Both the position numbers and the translations under genes were made by a program. Below, in pieces: positions 16,868-36,461 of a DNA stretch of 64,000 bases. The stretch's first letter is position 1, and each line of letters starts with the position of its first letter. A model generated the notes under the pieces. That model saw only the letters and a program-made list of their open reading frames with translations. It was not told where the DNA came from and did not search any database. This DNA is from Nitrospirota bacterium (lineage in GTDB: Bacteria > Nitrospirota > UBA9217), in the NCBI GenBank assembly GCA_963840455.1, contig CAWIYV010000009.1, forward strand, positions 32,001 to 96,000, given 5' to 3'.

Positions 16868-16889
16868 AGCGCCGATTCGAGCTCAGGGT

Positions 16890-17007: not shown

Positions 17008-17049
17008 CTCGGCCTTAGATGAAAATGAAGGGCGATAAACATCAGTTCT

Positions 17050-17853: not shown

Positions 17854-18043
17854 CACAAGAAGACCTGGGAACGAGCGACCAAAGAGAAACCGACGTCATC
17901 CTTGGGGTCGTTGAACATACCCGGTCCAGGCTTTTCCATAAGAAAACGTTGAAAGAGCAATGCCATTTGACGTTTAAGGCGTTATGTGAGAAAATGGACA
18001 ACATATTTCGTGTTCCGGTGATAACCCCTCGAAGGGAACCAAC

Positions 18044-19168
18044 ATGGCCGGCATAGAAATCATTGTCGTGGAAGGAGGATCGGACCTCAAGGCTTTCATT
18101 GATCTGCCATGGAGGATCTATGCTCGGTACCCAAACTGGGTCCCTCCCCTTAAAAAGGAGGTTCGCCGGGTGCTGGACACCCGCAAGCATCCGTTCTGGG
18201 AGTTTTCCGAGCGCATCCTCTTTCTGGCACGACGCGGTTCGGAGACGGTGGGAAGGATCGCGGGCATTGTAGATCATCGTTATATCCAATGCCACAACGA
18301 AAAGATGGGCACGTGGGGATTCTTCGAATGTGCCGACGATCCGGAGGCCGCGGCAGCCCTCTTCTCTTCCGTTGAGACGTGGGTCCGCCAGAAGGGGATG
18401 GCCTTCCTGAGAGGCCCGCTCAGCCCGTCGATGAATAACGAGGCGGGGTTGCTCATCGAGGGTTTCGATTATCCGCCTGCTGTGTCGATGACGTACAATC
18501 CGCCGTATTACCTCAGGCTGATCGAATCGTACGGTTTCACCAAAGAGAAGGACCTGCTGGCCTTTCTGCTGGATGGCGGCGATTACCGGCTTCCTGATTG
18601 GATGGACCGTCTTGCCGAGCGGACCGCCCAAAAAAAAGGTGTCTACATCAGGCACGTTGATCCGAAGAATCGGGATGCCGAGTTCGCCCTGATCAGGGAG
18701 ATATACAATAACTCCTGGTCCGGCAACTGGGGTTTCGTCCCCCTGACGGAAAATGAGATGCGGGACATTCAAAAAAGTGTGAAGCCCTTCGCGGACCCGG
18801 ACCTGGTGTTCTTCATCTATTATGAGAATGAACCCGCGGCGGTCTGCGTGATCTTTCCTGACATCAACCCTTTGCTTAAACGCCTCAACGGCCGGATCGG
18901 CCTGCTGGGTCTGCTCAAGGCGCTCATCTATCAGCGTGAGATCAGGGGATTGCGGTTGTTGATGTTCGGGATAAAGGAGAAATATCGACAGCTGGGGTTC
19001 CCCCTGTTGGCATTCCGCCACATCTATAAGATTGCGCGGGAAAATAAGAACTATCAGCATCTGGAGATGGGCTGGACCCTGGAGGACAATGAGTCGATCA
19101 ACGCATTGATAGGGGAAGCCGGCGCAAGAATATACAAGAAATATCGCATATTCAGAAAGGCTTTATGA
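18044..19168 (+). CDS. YghO/bCerS-like tandem GNAT N-acyltransferase
   Basis: FIDLPWRIY..PNWVPPL, HPFW, VGRIAGI, GFFEC, GP.SPSMN.EAGLLIEGF, YNPPYY, NWGFVP and WTLEDN motifs. Confidence 0.8.
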   Translation: MAGIEIIVVEGGSDLKAFIDLPWRIYARYPNWVPPLKKEVRRVLDTRKHPFWEFSERILFLARRGSETVGRIAGIVDHRYIQCHNEKMGTWGFFECADDPEAAAALFSSVETWVRQKGMAFLRGPLSPSMNNEAGLLIEGFDYPPAVSMTYNPPYYLRLIESYGFTKEKDLLAFLLDGGDYRLPDWMDRLAERTAQKKGVYIRHVDPKNRDAEFALIREIYNNSWSGNWGFVPLTENEMRDIQKSVKPFADPDLVFFIYYENEPAAVCVIFPDINPLLKRLNGRIGLLGLLKALIYQREIRGLRLLMFGIKEKYRQLGFPLLAFRHIYKIARENKNYQHLEMGWTLEDNESINALIGEAGARIYKKYRIFRKAL

Positions 19169-19359
19169 TCTAACACCGGGTTCCCAAAATACCTCCAGGA
19201 TTCGACGCGACGGCACAGAGATCGAGCATGCACATGCGCAGGCCCTGTTCGACCCGGCAGACCGCCGGCATTCTGCTTGCGAGGAGCGATCTCGATCATC
19301 AGAATCAGGGATCCGAGAGCCGACCGTTCTGTCGACGACGGCCAAATGGGAAATACCGA

Positions 19360-20196
19360 ATGAATGGGAAAGCAACCGAACGAGAATATCGAGCGCCTAT
19401 CCTCGTCGTGGCGATATTCCTGGCAGGGGTCGCGGCCGGTTGCGCCCACCGGCTCCATGCTCCGATGCAACCCGATGGCTGGAGTGCCCAGCCTATTGTG
19501 AGCGTGTGCCGCTTTGCCCCCGATGCCGACCTGGATCCCGCCACCGGAGCGCCTGTGGGGGACGAGGGGTATTACCTGTATATCCTGACCGAAGCTGCCG
19601 ATTGGGACTTCAGCGATGGGGCGTCGCTGGTCCTCTCAATTTGGCTGCGACCGTGGGCGCATGGTTGGATCATCCTGGAAAGTCCCTGGGATCGTCTGGA
19701 ATTCGGCCACACCGGCGACTTCGGGCAGGAGGCACCGCGTTATCATGAGGAAGTGATGCAGAGGGGTCGGGGTGGGGATCCCAATCCTATCGCGTATTTG
19801 TGGCAGACGAGGTCCGATGGCCAATTCCAGGTCGGCAAACCCAATCGACCACCCACGTTCGTCTGGAGAATGCCGATTACCCGACGACGGCATCAGCTGA
19901 TCAAGGAATACGTGATGCAGCGGAAGTACGACCAGTTCGGCGTGAGGAGCAACAACTGCACCGATTTGGTGGTGGAGGCAGCGGCGCTGGCGGGCATCAA
20001 TCTGAACCACCGCATTCGCCTCACCATGCCGTCAGAAACGAAGTTCTTGGGTCGGACGCTGCGTGTCTGGACGGACCCGCAATACCGCATCCTGGAGTTC
20101 AGCACGCCCGAAGTTTTGGAGATGGATCTGCGCCAGCTTGCCCAGATAGGGATAGGGAGTGATGCCACCGAGTGGTACCTGGCGCTGCAGCACTGA
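19360..20196 (+). CDS. Lipoprotein with putative permuted papain-like (His...Cys) catalytic motifs
   Basis: Lipobox VAAGC; AHGWIILE, EFGHTG and YDQFGVRSNNCTD; start chosen at MNGKAT. Confidence 0.65.
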   Translation: MNGKATEREYRAPILVVAIFLAGVAAGCAHRLHAPMQPDGWSAQPIVSVCRFAPDADLDPATGAPVGDEGYYLYILTEAADWDFSDGASLVLSIWLRPWAHGWIILESPWDRLEFGHTGDFGQEAPRYHEEVMQRGRGGDPNPIAYLWQTRSDGQFQVGKPNRPPTFVWRMPITRRRHQLIKEYVMQRKYDQFGVRSNNCTDLVVEAAALAGINLNHRIRLTMPSETKFLGRTLRVWTDPQYRILEFSTPEVLEMDLRQLAQIGIGSDATEWYLALQH

Positions 20197-20269
20197 CGGT
20201 CGCGCGGATACCCGGCCGTATCGGGTGGGATTGGTCCAACCGGCGAATTGCTATTATTAAGGTGAGTGT

Positions 20270-23200
20270 ATGACGTTGAAGCAGAGGTCTGACATCGTGG
20301 GTGAGCAGCGGGTTCCCATCATCGCTTTCGTCTGGCGGCCTGAGGAGATCACCCCACCGGTGATCCACATGGCTCATCGAACGGGGAGCAGGGCCATCTT
20401 CGATCTTTCCCTGATGGGGGTGGAAGGGTTGCATGCTTCCCTGCGAAAGGCTGACCCTGCCGGCCACGTAAGAGATATCAAGATCCCTGCCTCTGCCTTG
20501 ATGGATCCATCTTTGGGGCGGTTCCTTCGGGAAACAGGGGTCCAAGACATCTGGGTAGAATGCCACCCCCGGTTTTTCGAGGAGGATACCGCCACCGTTC
20601 TCCGGAGATTGAGCGAATTGTCGGAAAACCACCGTTGCTTTCCGATCGTCGGGGACCTGGATCTCCTGACAGCGATCTTGAAGGATAGCCCGGGAATCGG
20701 GCGCATCGTCCTGAAAGGATGCGAGGCCTCCGGATTCGTGAGCGGTGAGACGACCCTGGTGCTCTATTCGGCGGCCAGGGAAATGCTGCGCACCTCCTCG
20801 AAGTCCCTGGACGTCCTCATCTGGGGAGGCGTCTCCACCCCTGAGGCGGCAGCGGCGTTCCTGTCCACCGGGGCTTCCGGGATCGTCTTCGAGAGCGTCC
20901 ATTGGCTGACGGACCTCGTTGTCATTGATGATCTTCAACGCCAGCGGCTCGCCAAACTCCGCATGGATTCTACCGATCTGGTCGGCCTGGACCTGCAGGT
21001 TCCCTGCCGTCTTTTCAACAAGGGAAACTCTCTTGCGGTCAATGAGATCAAAACGTTCGAGAACACGCTGTGCGGAGCGGAGATCGCGGACGAAAGCCGC
21101 CGTTCCTTCGTAAACCACGTGCTTGCCAAAGCACACCACCCGCTGAAGAGCGATTTTACCCAGGATGAGGTCATCCCTCTGGGTGTGGAGGCTGCCTTTG
21201 CCGCCTCGTTCGTAGAGCGTTTCGGGGCTGGAACCGAGCAGGCCGTGAAAGCTTTCACGGACGAGATCCGGAACGCATGCCGCTCGGCCGGGGTGAAAAA
21301 GGACTTCTTCGTGGACAGCCCTGTCGCCAGGGAGATGGGAACCCGCTATCCCTTTATTCAGGGCGCCATGTCCTCCATCACCGATGTCCCGGAGTTTGCC
21401 TCGAAGGTCGCTGCTGCCGGCGGGTTGCCGACCATCGCCCTTGGCCTGATGGACGCGGAGGCCCTTGACCGGAGGCTGGGACGTTTGCCGGAGACCATGG
21501 AAGGGCGACCGTATGCCGTGAATGTCGTCTCTTTGGCGGAGAACCCTTTCCGGGAGACGCATCTTGCCTGGATAAAAAAACACCGACCCCGTTTTGTGGT
21601 GATCGCAGGAGGCGACCTCTCCCCCGTAAGAGAATTATTAGAGCGCGGCATGGAGGTCATGTATATCGCTCCTGATGAGGCCCTGTTGAGGCTCGCCCTT
21701 GAAGCCGGCGTCCGGTACGTGGTCTGCGAGGGATATGAGGCCGGCGGCCACGTCGGGCGACAGAGCACGCTCACCCTTGCTCAGATCGTGCTGGATCTGA
21801 AACGGCGCAATCCATCCCTCTTCCACAACCGTCGCGTGATCCTTGCAGGGGGGATCTGCAATCGGGAGACCGCATTCATGGCCGCCATGCTCGGCGCGGA
21901 CGGCATCCAGATGGGCACTGCCTATCTGACCACCCGGGAGATCGTTGAAACGGGCGCCTTGACTGCGCTCTATCAGCGGATGATCGTGGAATCGTCTCCA
22001 GGGGGGACAGTCGTTTCCGGCCAGAACACCGGACTTCGGGTGCGATCCTTATGGACCCCGAGAGTGGCAGCTCTTTTATCCCTGGAGAGGGAGTTTGCAG
22101 CGGGCCACCAGGACGAGCGTTCCTTCCGGACGAGAATGGAGGAGGTGACCGCGGGGAGCCTCTTCACTGCGGCCCGGGGTCTGGACAGAACGGACGGAAC
22201 GCCTCTGAATGAGCGGGATTGCCTGGAGCGCGGGCAATTCATGAGCGGGGCCTGCGCCGGTCTCATGAGCAAGGTCCAGGATCTGCAGTCCTTTCATCGC
22301 GAGCTGGCCGAAGGCCCTCTGGTGCTGCACGGGGCAGCCCCATCCGCCGAGGCCGGGCATGGACCGACGCGAGTCGCCCCCCGGGGCGGCGCTCATGAAA
22401 GGATCGCCATCACGGGGATGAGCCTCCTGAACGCCCTGGGGAAGAGTCCGGAGGAAGTCTGGGCCGCAAGCCTGGCGATGAAGAGCGGGATCACCCTGGT
22501 TCCGTCTTCCCGATGGGATCATGGGCTTTTTTACGATCCCCAGCCGCACGTTCCGGACAAGACCTACTGCCAGGTGGGCGCCTTCCAGGATTATACTATC
22601 TCCCGTAATGATCTCGGGATCTCCCCCCAGGATTTTCGAAGCATGACCGAGGCCACAAAGATCACCCTGTGGCTGGCAGACAGGGCCATCCGGGCCTCGG
22701 GCATTTTGGAGTCGGACATCCCGCGCGAACGGATCGGGGTCCTCATCGCCCAGAACTCGGGAGAGGCGGCAGGGACCCTCAACAATACCATCATCAGGGC
22801 GTACATTCACGACATCCTTGCCGACATCAAGAAGGCCGTTCACGCCACGCCAGGTCAGTTGAACGCCATCGAAGAGGAGCTGAAGTCCGGACGCATGGCA
22901 CCGGATGACACCACGCTCCTCGGAAGACTCAACTGCGCTGCGGCAGGCTTCATCTGCAACCGGTATGGGTTCACGGGGCCGAGCTTTGCGGTCTCCGCTG
23001 CCTGCGCCACCTCGCTGGTCGCACTCCACAGCGCCGTCCAGATGATCCGAACCGGCATCATCGATGCTGCCATTGTCGGAGGGGGCGAGGAGAATCTCAC
23101 CCATCTGCATTTTCTGGAATTCTCCGCCCTGGGCGCGCTGTTCGGGATGTCCGGACAGGAAAGACCCGCTCGCGAGACATCCCGCCCCTTCGATGCCGAA

Positions 23201-26200
23201 CGGGACGGGATGGTGCTCGGCGAAGGCGGGGGAATGATCGTCATCGAACGGGAAGGCCTGGCCCGCGCACGGGGGGCGCTTGTCCACGCCGTCATCACCG
23301 GCATGGGAGCGAGCAACAACCATCTGGGCATGGTGGAGTCCTCCCATGTCAGCCAGGAGATGGCCATCCGGGCCTCGTTCCGGGGGATGCCCTACGGGCC
23401 CGATGCGGTGGACCTCGTGGAATGCCACGCCACGAGCACCCGGCAGGGAGATGTGGAGGAGATCCGCGCCCTGAAAGCAGTCTTCAATTCCTCCCGGCGA
23501 ACCGCGCTCACCTCATTCAAATCCCAGATCGGACACACCCTGGGCGCCTCAGGGATGAACAGCCTCATTCGGGGGGTCATGGCCATGAAGGCGGGGGTTT
23601 TCCCTCCCACCCTCAATTATCTGCATCCAGACCCGGAAATCGGCTTGAACGGATCGGGTCTCCACATTACCCCGGAGCCGATCGATTGGAAGGGCAGGGA
23701 CAACCAGCCAAGACGGCTTCAGGTCAACGCCTTCGGATTCGGAGGTTCCAACTACGTTGTGCAGGTGGAGCAGGCCATGGATGAAGTGGATACGGTCCTG
23801 GTCTCCGCGGGTGGGGGGGCCCGTCTCGCTGAGGAAAAGAGCGGTGCTTCACCGCCGCCCCAGGGCGTCTCCTTCTTCCGGACCCAGATGGGCCGCCGTA
23901 CCTTCCGGATGGCCGTTGTGTCGCAAACCGAGGAGGAAGCGCTGAATTTCATCGAGAGGTCAGCCTCTCTTGACGAAGCCGGAACCGTTTCACCCAAGGC
24001 GTTGCAGTCCCTGGCGCACCAGGGGATCTTCCTGGGCCCTGAAGATCAGCAGGCGCCACCGCTCGCTTTTGTGTTTCCCGGGCAGGGGTCACAGTATGCA
24101 GGAATGGGGCGGGATCTCTACGTGTCCTTTCCCGTCATCAAGGAGTGGATGGATCGGGCTGCGGCTGCAGCGGACTTCGACCTCCTTCACTTATTGTTCC
24201 ATGATCGGGAGGAAAATCTTCAGAAGACCCGGTGGCAGCAGCCTGCCATGTTCGCCGTTGAACACGCCATGGCTCGATACCTCATCACCCTTGGTATTCA
24301 CCCGGTGGCTATGGCCGGCCACAGTCTGGGCGAGCTGACCGCTTTGTGCCTGGCCGGCGTCTATTCCCTGGAGGACGGATTCCGGATCGTGAACAAGCGT
24401 GCCCTCTGCATGGACAAGGCCGCTGCCATGAACGTGGACCCCGGCGTCATGGCGGCCACGGACGCCCCTCTGGATCTGCTGAAGGAGCTGATCCGGGGAC
24501 GGGAGGATGTCCATATCAGCAATATCAATTCACCGAAGCAGGTCGTCCTGAGCGGCAACACGGAGGCGGTCAAAACTTTTGGAAACAGCCTCAAGGAAAG
24601 GGGATACCGGGCCACGCTGCTGCGGGTCAGCATGGCCTTCCACTCACCTATCATGAGGGTCATCCATGATGAGCTCTCGGCGTACGTTGCCACCATCCCA
24701 TTTTATTCCCCGCGCATTCCCGTCATCTCCAACACGACCATGGCGCCCTATCCGTCGGATCCCGGCGAGATCAGGCGGATCCTGATGGCCCACCTGGAAT
24801 CTCCCGTCCAGTGGATGAATAACGTCCAGACGCTTTGGAACGACTACGGTGTCCGGCTTTTTTTGGAGGCGGGCCCCGGCGACATTTTAAGCGGTCTCAT
24901 CGCAGACACACTGTCTGATCCGGCATGCGTGCAGACCTGCCTTCCCACCGCAGAGAGCCTGACCTACAAGACCGCCCTTGCTCAGCTCTTCGCCCAAGGG
25001 CATCTGAAGATTGCAGGAGAACCGAGGTTTGTTTCCCTCCCTGCGTTCAGGAAGGCTGCCGGATCTCACCCGGTCGCCCAAGCAGCGCCGTCACGACCGT
25101 CGGAGCCCGGGCTCGTCGGTTCCAATCCTGCGGAAAGGATCATTCAAAGAGAGATCAACCGCTTCGTGATGGAGAATTTCGGACGCTTCCTTAAGCCCAC
25201 TATCCTGGACGCCATCCGCCAGGAGCTTGATCCGACATTCCAGGAAGCCGATCTGGCATCCGTTGTGAAATCCATGCTCGGGAGTCCGGGGTACCCTGAA
25301 CGCCGGAAGGAGATCCCGGACGGACAGGTTTCCCCTGCCCCCGGCGAGGCGCCGGAACGCCGGGATCACCTGGAGGCGCTTATTCGCATCATCATGGATG
25401 CCACGGGATTCAACAGGGACGAGATCAAACCCGACATGGACCTCAGGAGGGACCTCTCCATCCGCTCCAGCCGCCTCCCCATAATCATGGATGCTGCGGA
25501 ACGGCAATTCGGGATCACGATAGAATTGGAGGATTTTATCCAGGTCCGTACCGTGAAGGACATCGCGGATAAGATCTCCGAGATAATCGCCAGGCAGGAA
25601 GGCACAAGCCAGCCGCCATCCACCACTGCTGTCGACGCAGGTCCGGCGCGGGATGAAATCCTGAAATCTCCCGAGAACGAGGCCAGTTTAAAGCGGCTCG
25701 TTTTCAACCACGTCACTGCAGATCTGGCGGCCTCCGTCCCTATGGAATTGAGCCCAGGCGAGTCAGTCCTTCTTCTCTCACCTGGGCAGGATGACGGGAC
25801 CGCCGGAAGCGCAGGGGACATCCTCCGGCGGGATTATGGGGCTCACACGGTTCCCCTGCACTTCATGCAGGGGAACCCGGGTTCGGGCGAAGAGTACCAC
25901 GACCTTCTGACCGATGAAGGGTCCACCAGCGCGTCAGAGAACATATCGGCCCTGACGTCCCTCGCCGGGATGGTCATCACCTTGCATCAAGGCGGGTCCG
26001 GAAGGTTACAAGGCATGGCAGAGGTCTCGCGGCTTCTCAGGGGGCTCTTTCTCCTCCTGAAGGCCTTCCTCCGATCACCGGTCAAGAAATTCGTCGTGCT
26101 GATCCATTCCCGGGAGGATACCGCAACTCCCGGCCGGCTGCTGGCAGAGGGGATGCTCGGACTGTTTCTCAGCGCAGCGCAGGAGCATTCATCGGTCCGG

Positions 26201-28099
26201 TTCCGCACCCTGGAAGTCGGACGGGATACCGACCTGCGCGCTGCCTTGCGCGGTGCTCTGGACGGAGGATACGCCGCGGTTGAGATGATCCATCGTGATG
26301 GAAGCGTCTACACCTCTGAGGGGCAGGTAAGCCCGTCGAACTTCAAGGACCTGTCGAGTCTGGATCTGAACCCGGGAGACGTTGTTGTCATGTCCGGGGG
26401 CGCAGCCGGGATTACCGCCCACCTGGCCCGCAGCCTTGTGCCCTTCGCACCCCGCCTGGTGCTTCTGGGGAGGACACCTGCGTCTTGCCCCGAAGAACAC
26501 AGGGCATCGGAGATCGCTCGGACCCTGGCTGATCTGCACGCTGCAGGGATCGAGGCAACGTACCATACCTGCGATGTGACCGATCCCGATGCGGTCCGCG
26601 CTCTCTTGGGCGAGGTGGCAAGCCGTTACGGCAGGATCGACGGGATCATTCACGGCGCCGGGGTCCTCAGGGACGGACCCCTCAGCCAAATGACGCCGGA
26701 TGATTTCTCCATGGTCACGGATGTAAAATTCCTCGGGGCCTGGAATCTCTTCTCGGCCGCAGAAGGGGCCGGCTTGAGGTTTTTCGTGGGCCTCTCCTCG
26801 GCGGCAGCGATCCAGGGGAATCCCGGTCAGGCCAATTACGCTGCCGCCAACCGGATGATGTCCGCGTTGCTCAGGACCCTCCGCCGTAAGAACGGCGCCA
26901 TCCGCTTCAAGGCGTTGATGCTTCCCCCTGTCGATGGAGCGGGCATGGCCGACGATCCGGAGGTCCGGGAGCTGCTGAGGCGGAAGGGCGTGGCGTACAT
27001 CCACGTCAATGAGCTTGCAGGGCTTTTCTGCCGGGAGCTCTTCACCGCCCGCGTGGACGATGATTGGGTGATGTTCATGCGGAGACTGCCATCCGTGAGG
27101 ACGTCACTGCTCAATGATACGATCCGTCCTTCGTTCGGTGGAGAACTGGAGGGAGGCACCGTGTCCTTCAGTCCCGAGGACTTCCCCATGATAGAAAGGG
27201 TCTCTTGCCTGGACCTCCGCCGGCAAGAACTGGAGGCCTTCAGATCCTTTTCCCGGGAAAAGGATCTGTGGATCGCGGATCACCGGCCCTTCAAGTTCGT
27301 CAAGCATCCTCTGGTCTCAGCCGCCATGGTCCTGGAGACATTCATGGAAGCCGCCCGGATCCTCTACCCCCACCTGCAGGTGCGTGGAGTCCGCCAGGTG
27401 CGGCTCATGGACATGATCCAATGTCCTCCCGGGGTTCCACGGCCTTCCCGGATATCCTGCCGCCGGGCCGGCACCGGCGCCGGTCTTCGGGAAGTGGTGT
27501 GCGAGGTCTCTCTGGCAACACAGGAGATCTCCCCCACCGGGAGATTGACCGACCGCTTCATCCCGCACTGCACGGGCCAAGTGATCCTCGATGGCGGGGG
27601 AGGAGATATCGGGGAGGGGCTCCCGGATTTTCCTGTCCGGATGGACGAACTGCGGACGAGGCCCATGGATCATAAAAAGGTGTTAAAATTTTACACAGAC
27701 CATAGCGGCCTCGAAGGCCGGTATCGCGTGATGGAGGCTCTTGACGGCGCAGGTCACGGGGTGGTGCGGGGCCGGACCGCCTACCGGGAGACAAGTGATT
27801 TCGCACATCTGCGGAACGCACGGTACCAATACTCTCCTTATCTGTTCGAGGCTCTTTTACAGCTGGTCGGCTTCCATATCGCTGCAATGGACCCATCGGA
27901 GCGACGATCTCTGATTCCCCTGGAGATCGGGGAGATGAGGTTCTTGCGAACATGCCGGGTGGGGGAACAGATAACCCTGGAGGCCCGAATGCGGGCGCAA
28001 GACGCGGAAGGCCTCGCCTGGGACGCCAGAGGGCTTGACGATCAAGGCCGCACCATCATGCAGGTCCATACGATGCGAATGCACTGGGTTTCGGACTGA
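20270..28099 (+). CDS. Iterative type I PKS/FAS: NMO/FabK-like x2 - KS - AT - ACP - KR - DH, no TE
   Basis: KGCEASG and EGYEAGGH/PFIQGAM/QMGTAYL flavin barrels; KS SAACATS, ECHATST, KSQIGHT; AT FPGQGSQ, GHSLG, MAFHS; ACP DLSIRSS; KR GGAAGI, NYAAAN; C-terminal DH with DHRP. Confidence 0.92.
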   Translation: MTLKQRSDIVGEQRVPIIAFVWRPEEITPPVIHMAHRTGSRAIFDLSLMGVEGLHASLRKADPAGHVRDIKIPASALMDPSLGRFLRETGVQDIWVECHPRFFEEDTATVLRRLSELSENHRCFPIVGDLDLLTAILKDSPGIGRIVLKGCEASGFVSGETTLVLYSAAREMLRTSSKSLDVLIWGGVSTPEAAAAFLSTGASGIVFESVHWLTDLVVIDDLQRQRLAKLRMDSTDLVGLDLQVPCRLFNKGNSLAVNEIKTFENTLCGAEIADESRRSFVNHVLAKAHHPLKSDFTQDEVIPLGVEAAFAASFVERFGAGTEQAVKAFTDEIRNACRSAGVKKDFFVDSPVAREMGTRYPFIQGAMSSITDVPEFASKVAAAGGLPTIALGLMDAEALDRRLGRLPETMEGRPYAVNVVSLAENPFRETHLAWIKKHRPRFVVIAGGDLSPVRELLERGMEVMYIAPDEALLRLALEAGVRYVVCEGYEAGGHVGRQSTLTLAQIVLDLKRRNPSLFHNRRVILAGGICNRETAFMAAMLGADGIQMGTAYLTTREIVETGALTALYQRMIVESSPGGTVVSGQNTGLRVRSLWTPRVAALLSLEREFAAGHQDERSFRTRMEEVTAGSLFTAARGLDRTDGTPLNERDCLERGQFMSGACAGLMSKVQDLQSFHRELAEGPLVLHGAAPSAEAGHGPTRVAPRGGAHERIAITGMSLLNALGKSPEEVWAASLAMKSGITLVPSSRWDHGLFYDPQPHVPDKTYCQVGAFQDYTISRNDLGISPQDFRSMTEATKITLWLADRAIRASGILESDIPRERIGVLIAQNSGEAAGTLNNTIIRAYIHDILADIKKAVHATPGQLNAIEEELKSGRMAPDDTTLLGRLNCAAAGFICNRYGFTGPSFAVSAACATSLVALHSAVQMIRTGIIDAAIVGGGEENLTHLHFLEFSALGALFGMSGQERPARETSRPFDAERDGMVLGEGGGMIVIEREGLARARGALVHAVITGMGASNNHLGMVESSHVSQEMAIRASFRGMPYGPDAVDLVECHATSTRQGDVEEIRALKAVFNSSRRTALTSFKSQIGHTLGASGMNSLIRGVMAMKAGVFPPTLNYLHPDPEIGLNGSGLHITPEPIDWKGRDNQPRRLQVNAFGFGGSNYVVQVEQAMDEVDTVLVSAGGGARLAEEKSGASPPPQGVSFFRTQMGRRTFRMAVVSQTEEEALNFIERSASLDEAGTVSPKALQSLAHQGIFLGPEDQQAPPLAFVFPGQGSQYAGMGRDLYVSFPVIKEWMDRAAAAADFDLLHLLFHDREENLQKTRWQQPAMFAVEHAMARYLITLGIHPVAMAGHSLGELTALCLAGVYSLEDGFRIVNKRALCMDKAAAMNVDPGVMAATDAPLDLLKELIRGREDVHISNINSPKQVVLSGNTEAVKTFGNSLKERGYRATLLRVSMAFHSPIMRVIHDELSAYVATIPFYSPRIPVISNTTMAPYPSDPGEIRRILMAHLESPVQWMNNVQTLWNDYGVRLFLEAGPGDILSGLIADTLSDPACVQTCLPTAESLTYKTALAQLFAQGHLKIAGEPRFVSLPAFRKAAGSHPVAQAAPSRPSEPGLVGSNPAERIIQREINRFVMENFGRFLKPTILDAIRQELDPTFQEADLASVVKSMLGSPGYPERRKEIPDGQVSPAPGEAPERRDHLEALIRIIMDATGFNRDEIKPDMDLRRDLSIRSSRLPIIMDAAERQFGITIELEDFIQVRTVKDIADKISEIIARQEGTSQPPSTTAVDAGPARDEILKSPENEASLKRLVFNHVTADLAASVPMELSPGESVLLLSPGQDDGTAGSAGDILRRDYGAHTVPLHFMQGNPGSGEEYHDLLTDEGSTSASENISALTSLAGMVITLHQGGSGRLQGMAEVSRLLRGLFLLLKAFLRSPVKKFVVLIHSREDTATPGRLLAEGMLGLFLSAAQEHSSVRFRTLEVGRDTDLRAALRGALDGGYAAVEMIHRDGSVYTSEGQVSPSNFKDLSSLDLNPGDVVVMSGGAAGITAHLARSLVPFAPRLVLLGRTPASCPEEHRASEIARTLADLHAAGIEATYHTCDVTDPDAVRALLGEVASRYGRIDGIIHGAGVLRDGPLSQMTPDDFSMVTDVKFLGAWNLFSAAEGAGLRFFVGLSSAAAIQGNPGQANYAAANRMMSALLRTLRRKNGAIRFKALMLPPVDGAGMADDPEVRELLRRKGVAYIHVNELAGLFCRELFTARVDDDWVMFMRRLPSVRTSLLNDTIRPSFGGELEGGTVSFSPEDFPMIERVSCLDLRRQELEAFRSFSREKDLWIADHRPFKFVKHPLVSAAMVLETFMEAARILYPHLQVRGVRQVRLMDMIQCPPGVPRPSRISCRRAGTGAGLREVVCEVSLATQEISPTGRLTDRFIPHCTGQVILDGGGGDIGEGLPDFPVRMDELRTRPMDHKKVLKFYTDHSGLEGRYRVMEALDGAGHGVVRGRTAYRETSDFAHLRNARYQYSPYLFEALLQLVGFHIAAMDPSERRSLIPLEIGEMRFLRTCRVGEQITLEARMRAQDAEGLAWDARGLDDQGRTIMQVHTMRMHWVSD

Positions 28100-28147
28100 G
28101 CCTTGACGGTGGAGTAAGAACGCACCTCGGGCTCGGGAAAGAGGGGA

Positions 28148-28930
28148 GTGGATGTGGCAACGGATCACGAAGGGATAACCGCCCATGCCGTAACGTTCGA
28201 TCATCGAAGGGGACCTGTCTTCTATGCGTCCTTGCCCTGTAGGCCACGTGCCACTGAAACCCTCATCGGATACAGGACGAACGAGGCAGGAGAAAAGCAC
28301 CGCTTAGTCTCCATCCTGTGGGATCACCTTGCGGCGATGGAAGGCCCTCTTGGGAAATTCTGTCAATCCTCCAACAGAGTCGCCAACCCGATTCAGGTGG
28401 TCCGCGGCCCGCTGGGCAAGCCCCATCTCCTGTTGGGTGAGCATCGGGGGCCGGCTGTCTCCTTCAGCGAAGGTGGAGGGAAAGTTTGGGCCGCCCTCTG
28501 TGGGGATGGGTCCGATATCGGCATCGACGTGGCAGGGACCGACGAATTTCGGGGAGAATACCCCTTCCATCGGGTCTTTCATACACAAGAGCTTCAGCAT
28601 GCATCGATGTTGACAGGCGGAGATTTGGCAAAGGCATCAGCCCTGCTCTGGTCCATCAAGGAAGCCGTTGTCAAGGCTCTCGGATGCGGGTTCCATCTCG
28701 TGGATCCGAGGGAAATCTCCATCCATCCTTCAGAAGAAGAGGGCGGCGGGTATGCCTTTTCCGTGTGTCTATCAAAGAAGACCCAGGTGCGGTTCGCCAA
28801 TCGTGCCGGCTCGTCCCTAGGGGTACGTTCATTTCCCCGGCAGAAGACGTGGCTTTCCATCGCCCTCTTGAATCCAGGAGCGAGCGCATTCCCCGCAGCT
28901 TGCTGCGGGGTCAGCGAGCGATTAGAATAA
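28148..28930 (+). CDS. 4'-phosphopantetheinyl transferase (Sfp-like)
   Basis: GKP, IGIDV and WSIKEAVVKALG motifs; directly follows the PKS. Confidence 0.88.
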   Translation: MDVATDHEGITAHAVTFDHRRGPVFYASLPCRPRATETLIGYRTNEAGEKHRLVSILWDHLAAMEGPLGKFCQSSNRVANPIQVVRGPLGKPHLLLGEHRGPAVSFSEGGGKVWAALCGDGSDIGIDVAGTDEFRGEYPFHRVFHTQELQHASMLTGGDLAKASALLWSIKEAVVKALGCGFHLVDPREISIHPSEEEGGGYAFSVCLSKKTQVRFANRAGSSLGVRSFPRQKTWLSIALLNPGASAFPAACCGVSERLE

Positions 28931-28984
28931 ATAATACTACCTAGAGGATCGAGGATTCCTGCAGCCTGCCGCAGGGAGCTTCAA
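28868..28984 (+). mobile_element. Long twin-hairpin TTGAA...TTCAA element overlapping the PPTase 3' end
   Basis: 117 nt; hairpins CCCCGCAGC-TT-GCTGCGGGG and TCCTGCAGCCTGCCGCAGGGA; ends GCTTCAA. Confidence 0.75.
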
Positions 28985-28993
28985 TCGGCAACC

Positions 28994-30175
28994 ATGAATA
29001 ACCTTACCTGGAAGTGCGTGCCACGGCTGGACGGAGCGTCGCCGGCGGATCTGGGACGGCTCTTTCCGGAGCCTTCTTTCACCGCACCGCTCCTTGGTCT
29101 GCTGCAGGAATCGGGTATTGACGGTTTTAACCTGCGGAGCATCGTGGTGTTAAAAGATGATGCCCCTATTCTCTTATTGCCTCTGTTTGAATTCCATTTT
29201 GATCTGTCCACGTTTGCGGAGGGATGGACCAGGAGATCGCTGAAAGCGGCAGCCCGTCTCATCCCCTCAATTTTTCATCCTCGTGTTCTCGGCGTGGGGC
29301 TGTTGGAAGGGGGATGGAGCGAGATCGGCATGGATCCTCAGATCGATGCCGGCACCCTTGAGGCGGCATGGAAAATGGCCCTGGACGCCTTGCAAGCGCT
29401 CGCGATCGGACTGAAAAGCGACGTCGTGGTGTTTTACAACTTTCATGATCATGGCAAACTCCCCGGGGACGTATTCATAAAGTTCAACCGGGTGCCATGG
29501 CTTCCCGGCGGCCGGCTGCCGATTGCTTTTAGCAGCGTGGAAGAATACGTAAGCCGCCTTTCCGGTGCCGCGAGAAAGGATCTGCACCGCAAAATGCGCG
29601 CCTCCCACGAGGTCAGGGTGGTCCGAAGCCGAGACATTGCTCCTTTTCTGGACAGGATCTACAGGCTTTATCGGGAAGCAGTGAAGCGGAGCCCCCTGGC
29701 GTTTGGCGTGCACAACCGTGTATTTTTTGAAAAGATCTGCGAGAGGATCCCGGGCGCCGAGTACACGCTCTATTTTGTGCAGGAAGAACTGGCCGCTTTC
29801 AATCTCCTCATCGTAAGACAAGAAGCGTTGGTGGATAAATATTTCTGCATGGATTACGAGCTCGGCCGCAAATACAACCTGTATGTTCTGTCCTGGCTTG
29901 AGAATGTCCGCTTCTGCGTGGAGCAAAAGATCCCCCTCTATCACGCAGGTCAGGGCGCGGAGAGAACCAAGGCGCACCTCGGTGCGACGTTCATCCCGAA
30001 CCTTATCTTATTCAAGCACCGCTGGTCGGTGTTTGACCGTTTTCTTTTTGAGCGGCCGGCAATGATCGAAAAGGTCCTCAGATACCTCGGGTTCAGGCCC
30101 GTCGTCTCCCCCCTCGCCGCCCCGCAGGCACCGGTTCCGGGGCCGGCAGGAGCACATCCCTGTTCGCCGCCTTGA
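28994..30175 (+). CDS. FemAB-like/BioF2-like GNAT acyltransferase
   Basis: FSSVEEYVSRL...RKDLHRK, FFEKI, AAFNL, YNLY and GQGAERTKAHLGA pattern of the tandem-GNAT family. Confidence 0.8.
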   Translation: MNNLTWKCVPRLDGASPADLGRLFPEPSFTAPLLGLLQESGIDGFNLRSIVVLKDDAPILLLPLFEFHFDLSTFAEGWTRRSLKAAARLIPSIFHPRVLGVGLLEGGWSEIGMDPQIDAGTLEAAWKMALDALQALAIGLKSDVVVFYNFHDHGKLPGDVFIKFNRVPWLPGGRLPIAFSSVEEYVSRLSGAARKDLHRKMRASHEVRVVRSRDIAPFLDRIYRLYREAVKRSPLAFGVHNRVFFEKICERIPGAEYTLYFVQEELAAFNLLIVRQEALVDKYFCMDYELGRKYNLYVLSWLENVRFCVEQKIPLYHAGQGAERTKAHLGATFIPNLILFKHRWSVFDRFLFERPAMIEKVLRYLGFRPVVSPLAAPQAPVPGPAGAHPCSPP

Positions 30176-30286
30176 TCCGACCGCGCAGGCGAATGGACTC
30201 AGGCGGGGCGAGCGTCTTCAGCGCCCGAAAAATGCCGGACGTTACGGCGCTCAATACCGCTGCACCGGAGAGGAAGAATTTGATCC

Positions 30287-31243
30287 ATGATGAAAGAAGC
30301 TGAGCACGCGATCGAAGTCGAGAGGCTGACGAAGCGTTACGGTGATCTGCCGGCGGTCAACGATATATCGTTTACCGTCAGGAAAGGCGAGGTGTTCGCG
30401 TTCCTGGGACCGAACGGCGCCGGCAAGACCACGACCGTCGAGATCATCGAGACGATCCGCACGCCCACATCCGGCAACGTAACCCTTCTGGGAATGGACG
30501 TCACGAAGAAAAAACACGACATCGTCTCCCGCATCGGCGTCCTGCCGCAGGAGTTCAGCTCGTTCGACCGGATAACGGTCAGAGAGACCGTGCAGTACTA
30601 TGCTCGGCTGTTCTGCTCCAGGAACACCGATATCGACGGGCTGATAGAGCTCGTGAACCTCAAGGACAAGACCAAAGAGCAGTACAAGACCCTCTCCGGG
30701 GGATTGCGGCAGCGCTTGGGAATCGCGATCGCGCTCGTGAACGACCCCGAGGTCGTGTTCCTCGACGAACCGACGACAGGGCTCGACCCCCGGGCACGGC
30801 GCGAGGTTTGGGAAGTTCTGCAGGGCCTGAAGAAAAAGGGGAAGACGGTGTTCCTGACCACGCACTACATGGAGGAGGCGGAGCTTCTTGCAGACACGGT
30901 CGCGATCATCTCGAAGGGGAAGATCATCGCGATGGGCTCTCCCGGGGAACTCATCGAAAAGAACGCGAATTACCTGGTCCTCACGCTGCAGTCCGTCGAT
31001 GAACAAGCCTTTGACATCGTCCGGAAGATGGGCTTCGAGCCGGTCCGTAACGACCACAATGTCATCAAGATCAGGGTGGAGCACCAGGACGATGTGCAGA
31101 ATATCCTGAACGCCATCAAGGATGTCGGGGCGTCGTACCTCGGCCTGGACGTCCGGAAGCCCAACCTTGAAGAAGTCTTCCTGAAGCTCACCGGCGAGGC
31201 GCTCAGCAACGTTCCCGTCGGCGGAAGGGGGGGGGCGGAATGA
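30287..31243 (+). CDS. ABC exporter ATP-binding protein (DrrA-like)
   Basis: GPNGAGKTT, LSGG, FLDEPTTGLDP and TTHYMEEAE. Confidence 0.95.
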   Translation: MMKEAEHAIEVERLTKRYGDLPAVNDISFTVRKGEVFAFLGPNGAGKTTTVEIIETIRTPTSGNVTLLGMDVTKKKHDIVSRIGVLPQEFSSFDRITVRETVQYYARLFCSRNTDIDGLIELVNLKDKTKEQYKTLSGGLRQRLGIAIALVNDPEVVFLDEPTTGLDPRARREVWEVLQGLKKKGKTVFLTTHYMEEAELLADTVAIISKGKIIAMGSPGELIEKNANYLVLTLQSVDEQAFDIVRKMGFEPVRNDHNVIKIRVEHQDDVQNILNAIKDVGASYLGLDVRKPNLEEVFLKLTGEALSNVPVGGRGGAE

Positions 31244-32358
31244 ACCTGCGCGTCGTCGCCGCAAATCTCGTCGTGAAACTCAGGTGCTTCTACCGCGAGA
31301 AGACCGCCATGTTCTTCACCCTAGCGTTCCCGATAATCCTGATACTCGTGTTCGGCACGATCTTCATGAGCGAAGACAACGTGAGCTACCATCTTTGCGT
31401 GCAGGACCTCGACCGGACACAGTCGTCTGCAGAGTCCATCAAGACCCTCGAGCTCAACGGGAAATTCAAGATAACCACGGTCGACCCTGCCGTCAACGCC
31501 GCGCAGTACGTCAGGACCAACAGGGTGAACCTTGTCCTCGTTATTCCCGAAGGCTATGAACGGTCCCTCCTGCAGAGGATGATGCTCGACGATATCAAGG
31601 CATCCGTCACCATCACCTATATCTACGACCCCAGCTCATCCTCGGTGGCGACGAAGATGGAGATCCTGAACGCAGTGCTCGCCGGCATGAACCAGAAAAT
31701 GTCCGGGAAACCGCCGTTCATCAAGTCGGTGGAGCGATCGATCCTCACCAAAAAATACCGGTTCATCGAGTTCTTCGTTCCCGGCATCATTGCGATGGCG
31801 GTGATGACGTTGAGCCTGTTCGGAACGGTGGACTCGGACACGGAGCTGCGGCAGAAGGGCATCCTCAGGAAGCTGTCCACCACGCCCATCACCCGCACCG
31901 ACTGGATACTGTCGAACATCCTGTACCAGTTCATCCTCGCGGTCCTATCCACGATCGCGATGCTGCTGGTGAGCTACGCCGTGTTTCATGTCAGCCTGCA
32001 TATAGACGCCTGGCTCCCTGCGTTCATTTTGCTTGACGTCTTCGCGTTCGTCGGAATCGGGATGATCCTCACCCGCTTTGTGAAGGAGGCGCAGAGCGCC
32101 GCCGCCGCGGCAAACGCCATCAGTTACCCGATGATGTTCCTCTCGGGGAGCTTCTTCCCTATCGAATTGATGCCGGGGTTCCTGCAGAAGATCGCCAAGA
32201 CACTGCCGCTGTATTACGTGAACGAGGGGCTCCGGGCATCGATGGTATTTGAAGACAACATGGCCGCGCTGCGTTACGCCGCGGTCATAGGGGTTTTTGC
32301 TGCCGTGGTCTTCATCCTGGGCATACTAGCCAACAAATGGGAAGAGGGCCGATCATAG
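31240..32358 (+). CDS. ABC-2 type exporter permease
   Basis: One N-terminal plus five C-terminal TM helices, FFVPGIIAM and PMMFLSGSFFP; ATGA overlap with the ATPase gene. Confidence 0.92.
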   Translation: MNLRVVAANLVVKLRCFYREKTAMFFTLAFPIILILVFGTIFMSEDNVSYHLCVQDLDRTQSSAESIKTLELNGKFKITTVDPAVNAAQYVRTNRVNLVLVIPEGYERSLLQRMMLDDIKASVTITYIYDPSSSSVATKMEILNAVLAGMNQKMSGKPPFIKSVERSILTKKYRFIEFFVPGIIAMAVMTLSLFGTVDSDTELRQKGILRKLSTTPITRTDWILSNILYQFILAVLSTIAMLLVSYAVFHVSLHIDAWLPAFILLDVFAFVGIGMILTRFVKEAQSAAAAANAISYPMMFLSGSFFPIELMPGFLQKIAKTLPLYYVNEGLRASMVFEDNMAALRYAAVIGVFAAVVFILGILANKWEEGRS

Positions 32359-32453
32359 CGTAGTACTCCCTTCGCACGGTCACGCACGGGAGGAGATTCA
32401 GCAAAACAGGCATTGGTTGATTTTATGGAAAGTAACATTGGAGAGGTGAAAAC

Positions 32454-33806
32454 ATGAAGATAAAACTTATCGCACCCCATGAGAACCGTAAAGATGCTCT
32501 ATCCAGCCCTTTCAAGTTCCAGAGGGTAAATCTGCCTCTTCTGGCGGCGCTCACCCCGCATGGCCATACGATAACCATTGTCGAGGAAGCTCATGCTCCT
32601 GATGACATCGATCAAGATGTGGATCTGGTGGGCATCACCGTCCTGACCGAACTTGCGCTCAGGGCCTATGACATCGCTGACACCTATCGCAAGAAGGGCG
32701 TGAAGGTGGTGATGGGAGGAATGCATCCCACGGTATTGCCTGACGAAGCTTTAAAACATGCAGACGCGGTAGTCGTGGGAGAAGCGGAGGGCGTCTGGCC
32801 GCAACTTGTATCGGATGCCGCATCGGGACAGATGCAAAAAATATATCAGGCCGGTAAAATGACCGATCTCAGAGGTCTGCCGAAGCCACGGAGAGATCTC
32901 TTCCCCGGAACCAACGGCAGAGGTTATATTCCGATCCCGACCGGCGTCGAGACATCCCGAGGGTGTCCGAATGATTGCGAATTCTGTTGCATTGGTTCGA
33001 CCTTGGGGAAGCAATATCGAGTCAGGCCGGTTCACGAGGTGATCGCCGAGATAGAGTCCATTGATTCCCCCCACCTTTTCTTCGTCGATGACGCCCTTGG
33101 ACTGAACCGGGATGTAGCGAAAAAGCTCTTTACGGAAATGATACCTCTTCGGAAGAGATGGCTGGCGCAGGGGACCGTGTCGCTGGCCGAGGACCCGGAG
33201 CTGCTCAGCTTGATGAAACGTTCGGGGTGCCTGGGGCTTTTGATCGGGTTCGAATCGGTGCAGAAAGCAACACAGAATGAGGTGAAGAAAATAAAGAACT
33301 TGAAGATCGATTTTTATGAGGCCATGCGTCGATTCCATGGCGAAGGTTTCGGAATACTCGGCTCCTTTGTTTTCGGATTTGATTACGAGAACAAGGATGT
33401 GTTCGAGCAGACCCTTGAGTTCATCATGGGATCACACATGGATGTCGTCCAGTTGAGGATCCTCACTCCCTATCCGGGAACACGGTTATATACGCGTCTC
33501 TTGAGCGAAGGCAGGTTGTTTGAGCGTGATTGGTGGCTCCGTGGATATCCTCCTGATACACTCCTTTATCAGCCAAAAGGAATGACTGCTGACGAGCTCA
33601 TTAGCGGTTACGCCCGCTTGAACAGACAAGCCTATTCCTGGGGCGCAATGATGAAACGATTCCTTGGCATGACCCCATGGAAGCGGACTCTTTTGGGTTG
33701 CCAGGCGTTCACAGGGGTAAATCTATCCACCCGTAAACGGTATTTCAATGGCCTGAAGAATCCACAACCATATGCCGGGGCTTCTAGACCGATAGGAGCG
33801 CAGTAG
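32454..33806 (+). CDS. B12-binding domain radical SAM protein
   Basis: GGMHPT and VVGEAE (B12 domain), TSRGCPNDCEFC, FFVDD and TPYPGT; GGAGAGG RBS. Confidence 0.92.
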   Translation: MKIKLIAPHENRKDALSSPFKFQRVNLPLLAALTPHGHTITIVEEAHAPDDIDQDVDLVGITVLTELALRAYDIADTYRKKGVKVVMGGMHPTVLPDEALKHADAVVVGEAEGVWPQLVSDAASGQMQKIYQAGKMTDLRGLPKPRRDLFPGTNGRGYIPIPTGVETSRGCPNDCEFCCIGSTLGKQYRVRPVHEVIAEIESIDSPHLFFVDDALGLNRDVAKKLFTEMIPLRKRWLAQGTVSLAEDPELLSLMKRSGCLGLLIGFESVQKATQNEVKKIKNLKIDFYEAMRRFHGEGFGILGSFVFGFDYENKDVFEQTLEFIMGSHMDVVQLRILTPYPGTRLYTRLLSEGRLFERDWWLRGYPPDTLLYQPKGMTADELISGYARLNRQAYSWGAMMKRFLGMTPWKRTLLGCQAFTGVNLSTRKRYFNGLKNPQPYAGASRPIGAQ

Positions 33807-33882
33807 ATAGCAACCATGAAAAAGCAGGAAAAATGTTGTGGTAGTCCATTTAAAAAGGGTATATTTAAAAAAAGACATCATT

Positions 33883-33918
33883 TTAGATTGTTCGTATAAA
33901 TTGGATCGTTCGTATAAA
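33883..33918. repeat. 18-nt tandem direct repeat in AT-rich intergenic DNA
   Basis: ttagattgttcgtataaa / ttggatcgttcgtataaa (16/18 identical). Confidence 0.6.

Positions 33919-34355: not shown

Positions 34356-36461
<2,106 letters not shown>

Follow-up and report, generated by a model that had tools for sequence, protein, structure and literature searches.

A 64,000-nt stretch of contig CAWIYV010000009.1 from a Nitrospirota bacterium, referred to below as the window, carries at positions 18044-33806 a row of eight genes that we analysed as a candidate cluster for the synthesis of a ceramide-type lipid with the aid of a polyketide synthase (PKS). All eight open reading frames (ORFs) were confirmed, co-oriented on the plus strand, in agreement with an earlier sequence-only reading of this DNA, which had described eight consecutive co-oriented genes with short gaps. 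In what follows, G codes denote genomes (G000 is the source genome) and L codes denote loci in related genomes. The genes and their predicted products are:

18044-19168, plus strand: gene 1, tandem-GNAT N-acyltransferase, 374 aa
19228-20196 (open frame; probable start at 19360), plus strand: gene 2, predicted lipoprotein, about 278 aa
20270-28099, plus strand: gene 3, single-module, fully reducing type I PKS or fatty acid synthase-like synthase, 2609 aa, no thioesterase
28148-28930, plus strand: gene 4, 4'-phosphopantetheinyl transferase (PPTase)
28994-30175, plus strand: gene 5, FemAB-like / Acetyltransf_6 GNAT
30287-31243, plus strand: gene 6, ABC ATPase of the DrrA/NodI type
31240-32358, plus strand: gene 7, ABC-2 permease
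32454-33806, plus strand: gene 8, cobalamin-binding (class B) radical SAM enzyme

The intergenic gaps, in the order of genes 1 to 8, are 59, 73, 48, 63, 111, -4, and 95 nt, the first becoming 191 nt if gene 2 begins at 19360. Six of the eight genes exceed the Pfam curated cut-offs (PKS domains, ACPS, Acetyltransf_6, ABC_tran, ABC2_membrane_3, and Radical_SAM with B12-binding); genes 1 and 2 have no Pfam match, yet both have conserved homologues (3344 and 590, respectively). The Pfam matches, together with a CxxxCxxC motif, agree with the identities that had been proposed for the PPTase, the second GNAT, the ABC-2 pair, and the B12 radical SAM enzyme.

Gene 1 encodes a soluble protein of about 370 aa without a signal peptide and with no match in Pfam or NCBIfam. 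Its AlphaFold (AF2) model, built from 44 sequences, has a pLDDT of 92.8, and a Foldseek comparison with the PDB placed tandem GNATs on top, with TM values of 0.6-0.7 and a best E-value of 1.5e-14 for the glucosamine N-acetyltransferase 5kf1; further matches included the clavulanate tandem GNAT 2wpw, 7q3a, MAB_4324, and MshD 1ozp, with FemX lower down. Searches of PDB sequences yielded no usable match for genes 1, 2, or 5. The likeness to the bacterial ceramide synthase (bCerS) noticed in the sequence-only reading is thus upheld by the tandem-GNAT fold and by 40% identity to a GNAT encoded elsewhere in the same genome, in an operon with a CerR-like reductase and a serine palmitoyltransferase (Spt)-like gene, and gene 1 is predicted to encode a PKS-linked paralogue of the bacterial ceramide-synthase-type GNAT.

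The relationship between the two kinds of enzyme was followed on a quick maximum-likelihood tree of 81 GNATs, from which L027, a probable duplicate contig, and all rows with fewer than 330 aligned residues were excluded. Two clans emerged, each with an SH-aLRT of 100. In the Spt-linked clan (28 rows), 19 rows have an Spt-like gene within 8 kb, nine have neither an Spt-like gene nor a PKS, and none has a PKS. The PKS-linked clan comprises 53 rows, including the window; a PKS is present in the locus of 43 of them, six of which also have an alpha-oxoamine synthase (AOS) within 8 kb, and ten have neither. In four of these ten (L029, L051, L054, and L055), the contig ends no more than 1 kb from the gene; at the edge of L065 there is a PKS fragment. 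Gene 1 therefore stands outside the Spt-linked clan, in its sister clan, and is 37-46% identical to members of the Spt-adjacent clan over the full length. Altogether, 37 invariant and 46 near-invariant columns are common to both clans, and the invariant ones argue for the same chemistry in both.

Gene 1 and the PKS diverge together: the 29 loci with a gene 1 identity of at least 66% have PKS identities of 65-82%, and the six loci in which gene 1 is 49-54% identical have PKS identities of 45-57%, related rows in this comparison not being independent and L077 being mis-scored, as its canonical paralogue gave the longer match. Prediction of a complex between the gene 1 family and the acyl carrier protein (ACP) domain of the PKS gave a score of 0.00, which, without controls, is evidence neither way. 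Among the deep-branching relatives of gene 1, the one at L079:7838-12209 lies beside a B12 radical SAM gene and a SPASM radical SAM gene, and the one at L062:10001-11119 lies among unrelated genes.

The PKS encoded by gene 3 has, according to Pfam, the domain order ER-KS-AT-ACP-KR-DH and no thioesterase:

20270..21319, plus strand: N-terminal domain, residues 1-350, no family match
21335..22303, plus strand: enoyl reductase (ER) of the FabK/NMO type, flavin mononucleotide (FMN)-dependent, PF03060 at 4e-19, residues 356-613
22397..23620, plus strand: ketosynthase (KS), PF00109 and PF02801, residues 710-1117
24068..24949, plus strand: acyltransferase (AT), PF00698, residues 1267-1560, 228 bits with the FabD model
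25376..25570, plus strand: single ACP, PF00550, residues 1703-1767
26384..26890, plus strand: ketoreductase (KR), PF08659 at 5e-38, residues 2039-2207
27242..28090, plus strand: dehydratase (DH), double hot-dog of the PKS type, PF14765 at 1e-11 and weak PF21089, extending to residue 2607

The catalytic motifs were inspected in an alignment of 19 sequences, the window's own and 18 orthologues. In all of them the KS residues are kept (the Cys of AACATS and the His residues of CHATST and IGHTLG), as are the AT motifs GHSLGE and MAFHS, which we take to indicate a malonyl-type AT, the ACP Ser in DLSIRSSRL, and the KR Tyr of YAAAN. The DH His is likewise kept, with Glu at the usual Asp position and a conserved FEALxQ-type motif. 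The ER motif EAGGH/ESGGH was found in 18 of the 19 sequences, the remaining one, L106, having no ER region. In this locus, from a metagenome-assembled genome (MAG) labelled Binatia, the PKS orthologue (L106:2232-7994) begins at window residue 686 and thus has neither the N-terminal domain nor the ER; no separate ER was found there by tblastn with the window PKS in the 20 kb examined. The ER is nearer to FabK (PDB 5gvh, E-value of 1.5e-24) than to PfaD (PDB, E-value of 0.008), and the NCBIfam models PfaA, PKS_plus_SDR, and FabK all score far under their cut-offs on gene 3.

The view of the PKS as a reductive synthase lacking a thioesterase accordingly holds, with one full module and every catalytic motif kept. 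From one full set of reducing domains and the lack of a release domain it follows that the chain is assembled iteratively, is saturated, and has to be released by another enzyme; iterative use itself is inferred from the single module. As for the N-terminal domain, residues 1-350 gave no Pfam match even at E-values up to 10, and the idea of a degenerate second ER barrel found no statistical support, the BLASTP match to the ER domain being non-significant (E-value of 4.7). The best 120 listed "shorter" homologues of this domain (62-96% identity) all look like fragments of the same PKS. The adjacent gene 4 encodes a PPTase (PF01648, 2.8e-12), which adjoins the PKS in all 11 of the extended loci described below.

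A scan for gene 1, with one genome per species, yielded 585 confirmed stretches, from which 80 loci, nearly all from MAGs, were kept. The 39 closest of these loci have gene 1 identities of 70-90% and come from MAGs labelled Nitrospirota, Desulfobacterota, Binatia, Verrucomicrobiota, Phycisphaerae, Acidobacteriota, and Aminicenantes. The labels of the carrier MAGs extend to Nitrospiraceae/Nitrospira, Thermodesulfovibrionales, delta proteobacteria, Geobacter, Desulfuromonadales, Syntrophales, Desulfobaccales, and Desulfotignum, and to Binatia, Verrucomicrobiota, Phycisphaerae, Acidobacteria/Holophagae, Aminicenantes, and Riflebacteria. Eleven loci were extended, the five closest and six more distant ones in which the permease had already been found. 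By tblastn, gene 1, the PKS, the PPTase, and the ABC pair were present in all 11, genes 5 and 8 in eight loci each, and gene 2 in seven of the 11 genomes if L028 is counted for G043. The same gene order recurs in other genomes, with protein identities of 50-90%. An orthologue of gene 8 (78-83% identity) lies downstream of the cluster in all five close genomes, and a permease orthologue was found in seven of the ten more distant cluster genomes. Three deep-branch loci (L067, L072, and L076) have the PKS upstream of gene 1. Gene 1, the PKS, and the PPTase thus form the core of the cluster, to which the ABC pair usually belongs as well; the lipoprotein, the radical SAM enzyme, and the second GNAT are often present but optional.

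That the genes co-occur in many other genomes answers the point on which the sequence-only reading had staked its proposal, since failure to co-occur had been named in advance as a ground for abandoning it, and the recurrence of the same gene set in the same order shows that the arrangement is not due to chance. Among 40 relatives of the source genome the PKS was detected in only one, G009, from the same family and another genus, with 77% identity and again as part of a block; it was not found in any of the five same-genus genomes. Horizontal spread is indicated by the high identity across diverse labels and by this scattered occurrence in close relatives. No sign of transfer is seen in base composition, the cluster having a GC content (0.51-0.63 per 2 kb) not distinct from that of the rest of the window, and a comparison with the five same-genus genomes for an empty site found no syntenic site, the flanks consisting of large paralogous families of PAS and sigma-54-activator genes and a dispersed repeat. 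In two DNA runs that carry the labels wetland and freshwater metagenome, contigs at least 90% alike reached a summed depth of about 150-2900 over most bins of the cluster versus 12-90 on the flanks; this excess fits many carriers of near-identical cassettes, summed contig depth being a crude measure. Contigs at least 90% alike were also obtained for 29 of 30 bins from the RNA-seq library X19; as contigs do not demonstrate transcription and DNA carry-over is possible, this is no more than a hint of it. In the G043 cluster, type I restriction R-subunit genes (L112:3654-6714, minus strand) lie within the roughly 10 kb between the permease and the radical SAM orthologue, which looks like an insertion inside the cluster.

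The search of the genome for spt and cerR that had been recommended together with the sequence-only reading found candidates of both on another contig, C7, in a canonical sphingolipid-type locus:

G000:C7:404081-409067 (L114:5582-10568): CerR-like gene, Spt-like AOS, tandem GNAT, 233-aa ORF, and PAP2_3 gene

The order there is a CerR-like reductase of the NAD-epimerase family, the Spt-like AOS of the aminotransferase class, the GNAT 40% identical to gene 1, and the unnamed 233-aa ORF, with the PAP2_3 gene on the other strand. The best NCBIfam match of the AOS is serine palmitoyltransferase NF047600 (580 bits versus a cut-off of 640); the next best model reaches 445 bits, and Kbl and BioF are more than 140 bits lower. 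The C7 copy of the GNAT is the vertically shared one, being present in 20 of the 40 relatives with 37-42% identity to gene 1. To judge from its gene content, this set matches the layout given for Caulobacter in PMC11087976, namely Spt, the acyltransferase bCerS, and the NDUFA9-like reductase CerR.

In several relatives such genes lie next to the cluster itself. L024 and L032 carry, on one strand, the CerR-like gene, the Spt-like gene, the canonical GNAT, gene 1, gene 2, and the PKS, and L026, whose contig starts within Spt, has the same order from there onward; only in L032 was a PAP2_3 gene, on the minus strand, identified between the two GNATs. Within 6 kb of gene 1, G050 has an Spt-like, a CerR-like, and a canonical GNAT gene. 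G049 has a CerR-like/Spt-like/PAP2_3 row without a GNAT about 4 kb beyond gene 8, and no bCerS-like gene other than the gene 1 orthologue was found in that genome. In G053 and G047, fusions of a fatty acyl-AMP ligase (FAAL), an ACP, and an AOS, 1137-1174 aa long, abut the cluster (L110:14845-18369, minus strand; L036:5123-8536, plus strand); a SPASM radical SAM gene and an MMPL-family gene stand beside the fusion in L110. An Spt-like gene (43-85% identity) was found in 11 of the 16 cluster genomes that were searched, and the AOS fusion in two more. A second bCerS-like gene was found in nine of the 16; in the other seven (G049, G047, G053, G046, G051, G043, and G055) the gene 1 orthologue is the sole one found.

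On balance, we favour the interpretation that the cluster is a horizontally spread cassette for a ceramide-type lipid, that is, an N-acylated sphingoid or related amino lipid, with the N-acyl chain coming from the PKS, gene 1 acting as the releasing enzyme, and the product being exported. Gene 4 would prime the single ACP, and the PKS would iterate with malonyl extenders to give a fatty-type chain, saturated because KR, DH, and ER are all present and held on the ACP because a thioesterase is missing. The cytoplasmic gene 1 enzyme would then move the chain from the ACP to the amine of a sphingoid base of the 3-ketosphinganine type, thereby freeing it; the base would come from an Spt-like enzyme encoded elsewhere in the genome, and a CerR-like reductase and head-group enzymes, also encoded elsewhere, would finish the lipid. 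The DrrAB-like ABC-2 pair (genes 6 and 7) would move it out of the inner membrane, and the gene 5 GNAT, the gene 8 radical SAM enzyme, and the gene 2 lipoprotein may provide optional tailoring. What the data show directly are the gene content, the folds, the motifs, the synteny, the split of the GNAT family, and the physical linkage to Spt and CerR genes; we infer the donor, the acceptor, the chain length, all tailoring steps, and the direction of transport. The product would probably be an unusual exported sphingolipid-like lipid of oxygen-free habitats. A bolder version, which we advance only tentatively, is that gene 1 is a ceramide synthase switched from the general acyl pool to the private ACP of a megasynthase, giving a new release mechanism for PKSs without a thioesterase and an entry to undescribed exported sphingolipids that could be very-long-chain and/or modified by the radical SAM enzyme (e.g., methyl-branched) and periplasmically decorated, the cassette of about 16 kb being traded among anaerobes of many phyla.

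Sphingolipids were long thought to be rare in bacteria. The makers of such lipids in oxygen-free habitats are largely unknown, and the cluster is a concrete, testable candidate source. The ceramide pathway of Caulobacter crescentus, reportedly established by Stankeviciute et al. in 2022, relies on Spt, bCerS, and CerR. The present system resembles the bacterial ceramide pathway in the 40% identity of gene 1 to the GNAT of the Spt/CerR operon in its own genome and in the proposed N-acylation of an Spt product; it differs in that the partners of the gene 1 clan are a PKS, a PPTase, and an ABC-2 exporter in place of Spt and CerR, and in that the proposed donor is the ACP of a megasynthase rather than the general pool. 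In the Pfa synthases, PfaA (KS-AT-ACPn-KR-DH) works with PfaD as the ER. The FabK/NMO-type ER and the KS-AT-ACP-KR-DH order of gene 3 recall this arrangement, and the PfaA model TIGR02813 matches with 422 bits; however, the cut-off of this model is 1010 bits, a single ACP takes the place of a tandem array, neither a ketosynthase-chain length factor (KS-CLF) nor a FabA-type DH subunit is encoded in the cluster, and the ER is fused N-terminally behind an extra domain of 350 aa. Mycobacterial phthiocerol dimycocerosate (PDIM) is made by PKSs without a thioesterase, released by the acyltransferase PapA5, and exported with DrrABC and the lipoprotein LppX. The two parts lists are alike in kind (a PKS without a thioesterase, a stand-alone releasing acyltransferase, a DrrAB-type exporter, and a lipoprotein), but PapA5 is of the condensation type and gene 1 is a tandem GNAT, and the product class and the organisms differ.

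The closest published system that we found is PfSgaAB(C) of Pseudomonas fluorescens MYb115, in which, according to PMC12134224, an iterative type I PKS and an Spt (with a KDSR) produce very-long-chain sphinganines. Here too, in our interpretation, sphingolipid synthesis would be fed by a dedicated iterative PKS with no thioesterase-type release. There, however, the partner of the PKS is an AOS and the chain becomes part of the long-chain base, whereas here the constant partner is a bCerS-type GNAT; the text consulted describes no ceramide synthase. An AOS is usually not adjacent in our loci, and, compared with what is described there, a PPTase, an ABC-2 exporter, a radical SAM enzyme, and a second GNAT are added. 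A PKS adjoining an Spt-type AOS, the mark of SgaAB, is not seen in the window and occurs only in some of the relatives. The sequence-only reading had recognised no characterised pathway of this composition, and no publication on one was found; the full texts searched describe no bCerS-type gene wired to a PKS, this comparison being confined to the literature, with MIBiG and antiSMASH outside its scope. If our interpretation is true, the cluster represents, next to SgaAB, a second route from polyketide machinery into sphingolipid synthesis and a new way of releasing PKS chains, and it offers marker genes for reading sedimentary lipid records.

An SgaAB-like route, which we consider distinctly improbable, would assign the PKS to the base instead of the N-acyl chain: its acyl thioester would be condensed with serine or alanine by an Spt-type AOS into an unusual (e.g., very long) sphingoid base, gene 1 would N-acylate the latter with ordinary acyl-CoA or acyl-ACP, and its divergence from the canonical enzyme would reflect the acceptor and not the donor. 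Such chemistry has a precedent in P. fluorescens, where SgaA (an iterative PKS) and SgaB (an Spt) are described in PMC12134224 as making C24-C28 sphinganines, and an AOS does lie within 8 kb of gene 1 in six of the 43 PKS-linked loci and slightly farther away in G049 and G053. In the other 37 loci, however, no AOS is found within this distance, nor is there one in the 64-kb window, and the FAAL-ACP-fused AOSs of G053 and G047 would load their own acyl chains and not need the PKS. Supply of the N-acyl chain by the PKS is favoured over this route because the gene that constantly adjoins the PKS is gene 1 and not an AOS, and because the adjacent AOS fusions carry self-loading FAAL-ACP domains. 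A non-sphingoid acceptor, although unlikely in our estimation, would account for other features of the data: the chain may be passed to an amino acid, to a head-group amine (as in ceramide phosphoethanolamine), or to a finished ceramide, giving an N-acyl amino lipid or a three-chain lipid. The presence of the canonical GNAT and gene 1 in one operon in L024, L026, and L032 suggests non-redundant roles, and the frequent FemAB-like transferase and the sulfatase-family membrane enzyme of some relatives hint at head-group chemistry; aminoacyl-transfer chemistry occurs in the FemAB superfamily. Against a different acceptor stand the 37 invariant and 46 near-invariant columns common with the Spt-linked clan and the seven genomes in which gene 1 is the only bCerS-like gene, among them G049, which has Spt, CerR, and PAP2 and no other candidate ceramide synthase.

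Several observations weigh against the interpretation that we prefer, namely a PKS-fed ceramide-type lipid, and should be set beside those just given. No Spt-like or CerR-like gene was detected by tblastn at E-values up to 1e-3 in the 64-kb window, as had already been noticed for serine palmitoyltransferase. Three of the 16 cluster genomes, all of them MAGs of uncertain completeness, have no clear Spt (none at 1e-30 in G043, only 35% identity in G046 and G051), which would also suit a non-sphingoid acceptor. The co-occurrence of both GNATs in the three operons named above may mean differing jobs and another acceptor for gene 1. The deep-branch members L061, L062, and L079 of the PKS-linked clan have no PKS in the sequence around the gene, and a permease orthologue was not found in three of the ten distant cluster genomes (G048, G054, and G055). 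Membership of gene 1 in the ceramide synthase family rests on synteny, and direct transfer from the ACP, as opposed to transfer via a CoA thioester, is only surmised. An ordinary secreted polyketide or other secondary metabolite, with gene 1 as a starter-unit or self-resistance GNAT, the ABC-2 pair as a drug efflux system, and no tie to sphingolipids, would be in keeping with the DrrA-type ATPase as the best NCBIfam match of gene 6 and with the GNAT loading domains that exist in some PKSs. We regard it as very improbable: a plain fatty chain would be expected from one fully reducing module whose AT is of the malonyl type, the other clan of the gene 1 family is linked to Spt, and Spt, CerR, and PAP2 genes repeatedly abut the cluster. 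The chance that the eight genes are mere neighbours without a functional unit, to which the lack of a promoter or terminator pattern above shuffles might be ascribed, is next to negligible and already refuted by synteny, as the same order recurs, at protein identities of 50-90%, in MAGs whose labels span many phyla and the only one of the 40 relatives to have the cluster again has it as a block.

Gene 2 had been described as a papain-like lipoprotein, and the two halves of this description fared differently. The true start is probably at 19360 and not 19228, since the homologues begin at the Met encoded there. The sequence contains the lipobox LAGVAAGC, whose Cys is near-invariant (at least 90%) in 27 aligned sequences, five of them locus fragments, so that a lipoprotein is predicted. 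None of the 590 homologues has a name, and the family comprises 258 representative clusters. In 49 family members with identities of 23-57%, His102 and Cys201 are invariant and His118 is near-invariant, in the order His-His-Cys. No Pfam match was obtained for gene 2 or for 27 close members, and Foldseek with a model of pLDDT 72 found nothing at E-values up to 0.001 in the PDB and BFVD. Three of the 49 family members gave weak matches to PPPDE PF05903 (best E-value of 0.079); the family profile touches the NlpC/P60-type TseH (PDB 6v98) near the Cys at a sub-threshold E-value of 1, and an Atlas lead pointed to a TseH cluster with a score of 0.89. The Cys/His order is thus like that of the permuted papain-like enzymes PPPDE and NlpC/P60 TseH, but no match is significant; LRAT and PLAAT, which we take to be further permuted papain-like Cys/His enzymes, belong to the same comparison. 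Hence the lipoprotein half stands on the conserved lipobox, whereas the papain-like fold is unproven and has on its side the His...Cys pair and the sub-threshold matches. This affects the proposal that either the GNAT or the papain-like enzyme offloads the chain: because of its lipobox gene 2 probably acts outside the cytoplasm, which leaves gene 1 as the likely releasing enzyme.

The product of gene 5 matches PF13480 and, below the cut-off, PF04339, and its nearest Atlas clusters carry both families. As a possible relative of gene 1 it was rejected, no relationship being detectable (hhalign probability of 0.2%). It may be an optional tailoring transferase, its role in the pathway being purely conjectural. 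Gene 6 (PF00005) has the drrA model TIGR01188 as its best NCBIfam match (282.8 bits versus a cut-off of 312) and contains the Walker A and LSGG motifs; gene 7, which overlaps it by 4 nt, matches PF12698 and PF01061. Gene 8 combines the features of class B radical SAM enzymes, an N-terminal B12-binding domain (PF02310, 42.1 bits versus a cut-off of 32.1) and a radical SAM core (PF04055, 58.2 bits versus 29.5), with CPNDCEFC at residue 171 as its CxxxCxxC motif. It fits no curated family, the best NCBIfam match being HpnJ with 98.6 bits versus a cut-off of 577.6, and our guess is that it methylates the chain or alters it in some other oxygen-independent manner. Between the permease and gene 8, L103 and L107 contain a gene not present in the window (L103:14672-16456; L107:5828-7633, minus strand) for a membrane protein of the sulfatase family, about 600 aa in length and with a long region at the N-terminus, an architecture presumably like that of phosphoethanolamine or phosphoglycerol transferases. 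A second B12 radical SAM gene, likewise not in the window, is found in tandem between the permease and gene 8 in L103 (L103:17973-19253).

No Rfam match was found within 16800-34600, and no sigma-54 promoter motif on the plus strand upstream of gene 1. Sigma-70-like sites in the upstream region are no commoner than in shuffles (six found versus 7.0 expected), and one weak candidate may be listed:

17967..17995, plus strand: candidate promoter, a pair of sigma-70-like hexamers some 50 nt upstream of gene 1, 9/12 matches and TG

The cluster is flanked by chemotaxis, PAS, and sigma-54-activator genes and an Omp85 gene. The genes that bracket it (17050-17853 and 34356-35000) are paralogous PAS genes, and both match one stretch of G005:C18 with 70-72% DNA identity, where pairs of PAS and sigma-54-activator genes are tandemly repeated. 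The sigma-54 activator and Omp85 genes, located downstream of gene 8 in the window, have their homologues upstream of gene 1 in L027, apparently a contig of G009. Positions 16890-16997, between a CheB/CheR-PAS gene and the PAS gene, are occupied by a dispersed repeat about 107 nt long, for which Rfam gave no match. In the source genome 42 matches with 85-91% identity were listed on both strands (from 273 first-look candidates, 40 of which were scored), and the five same-genus genomes contain dozens of copies.

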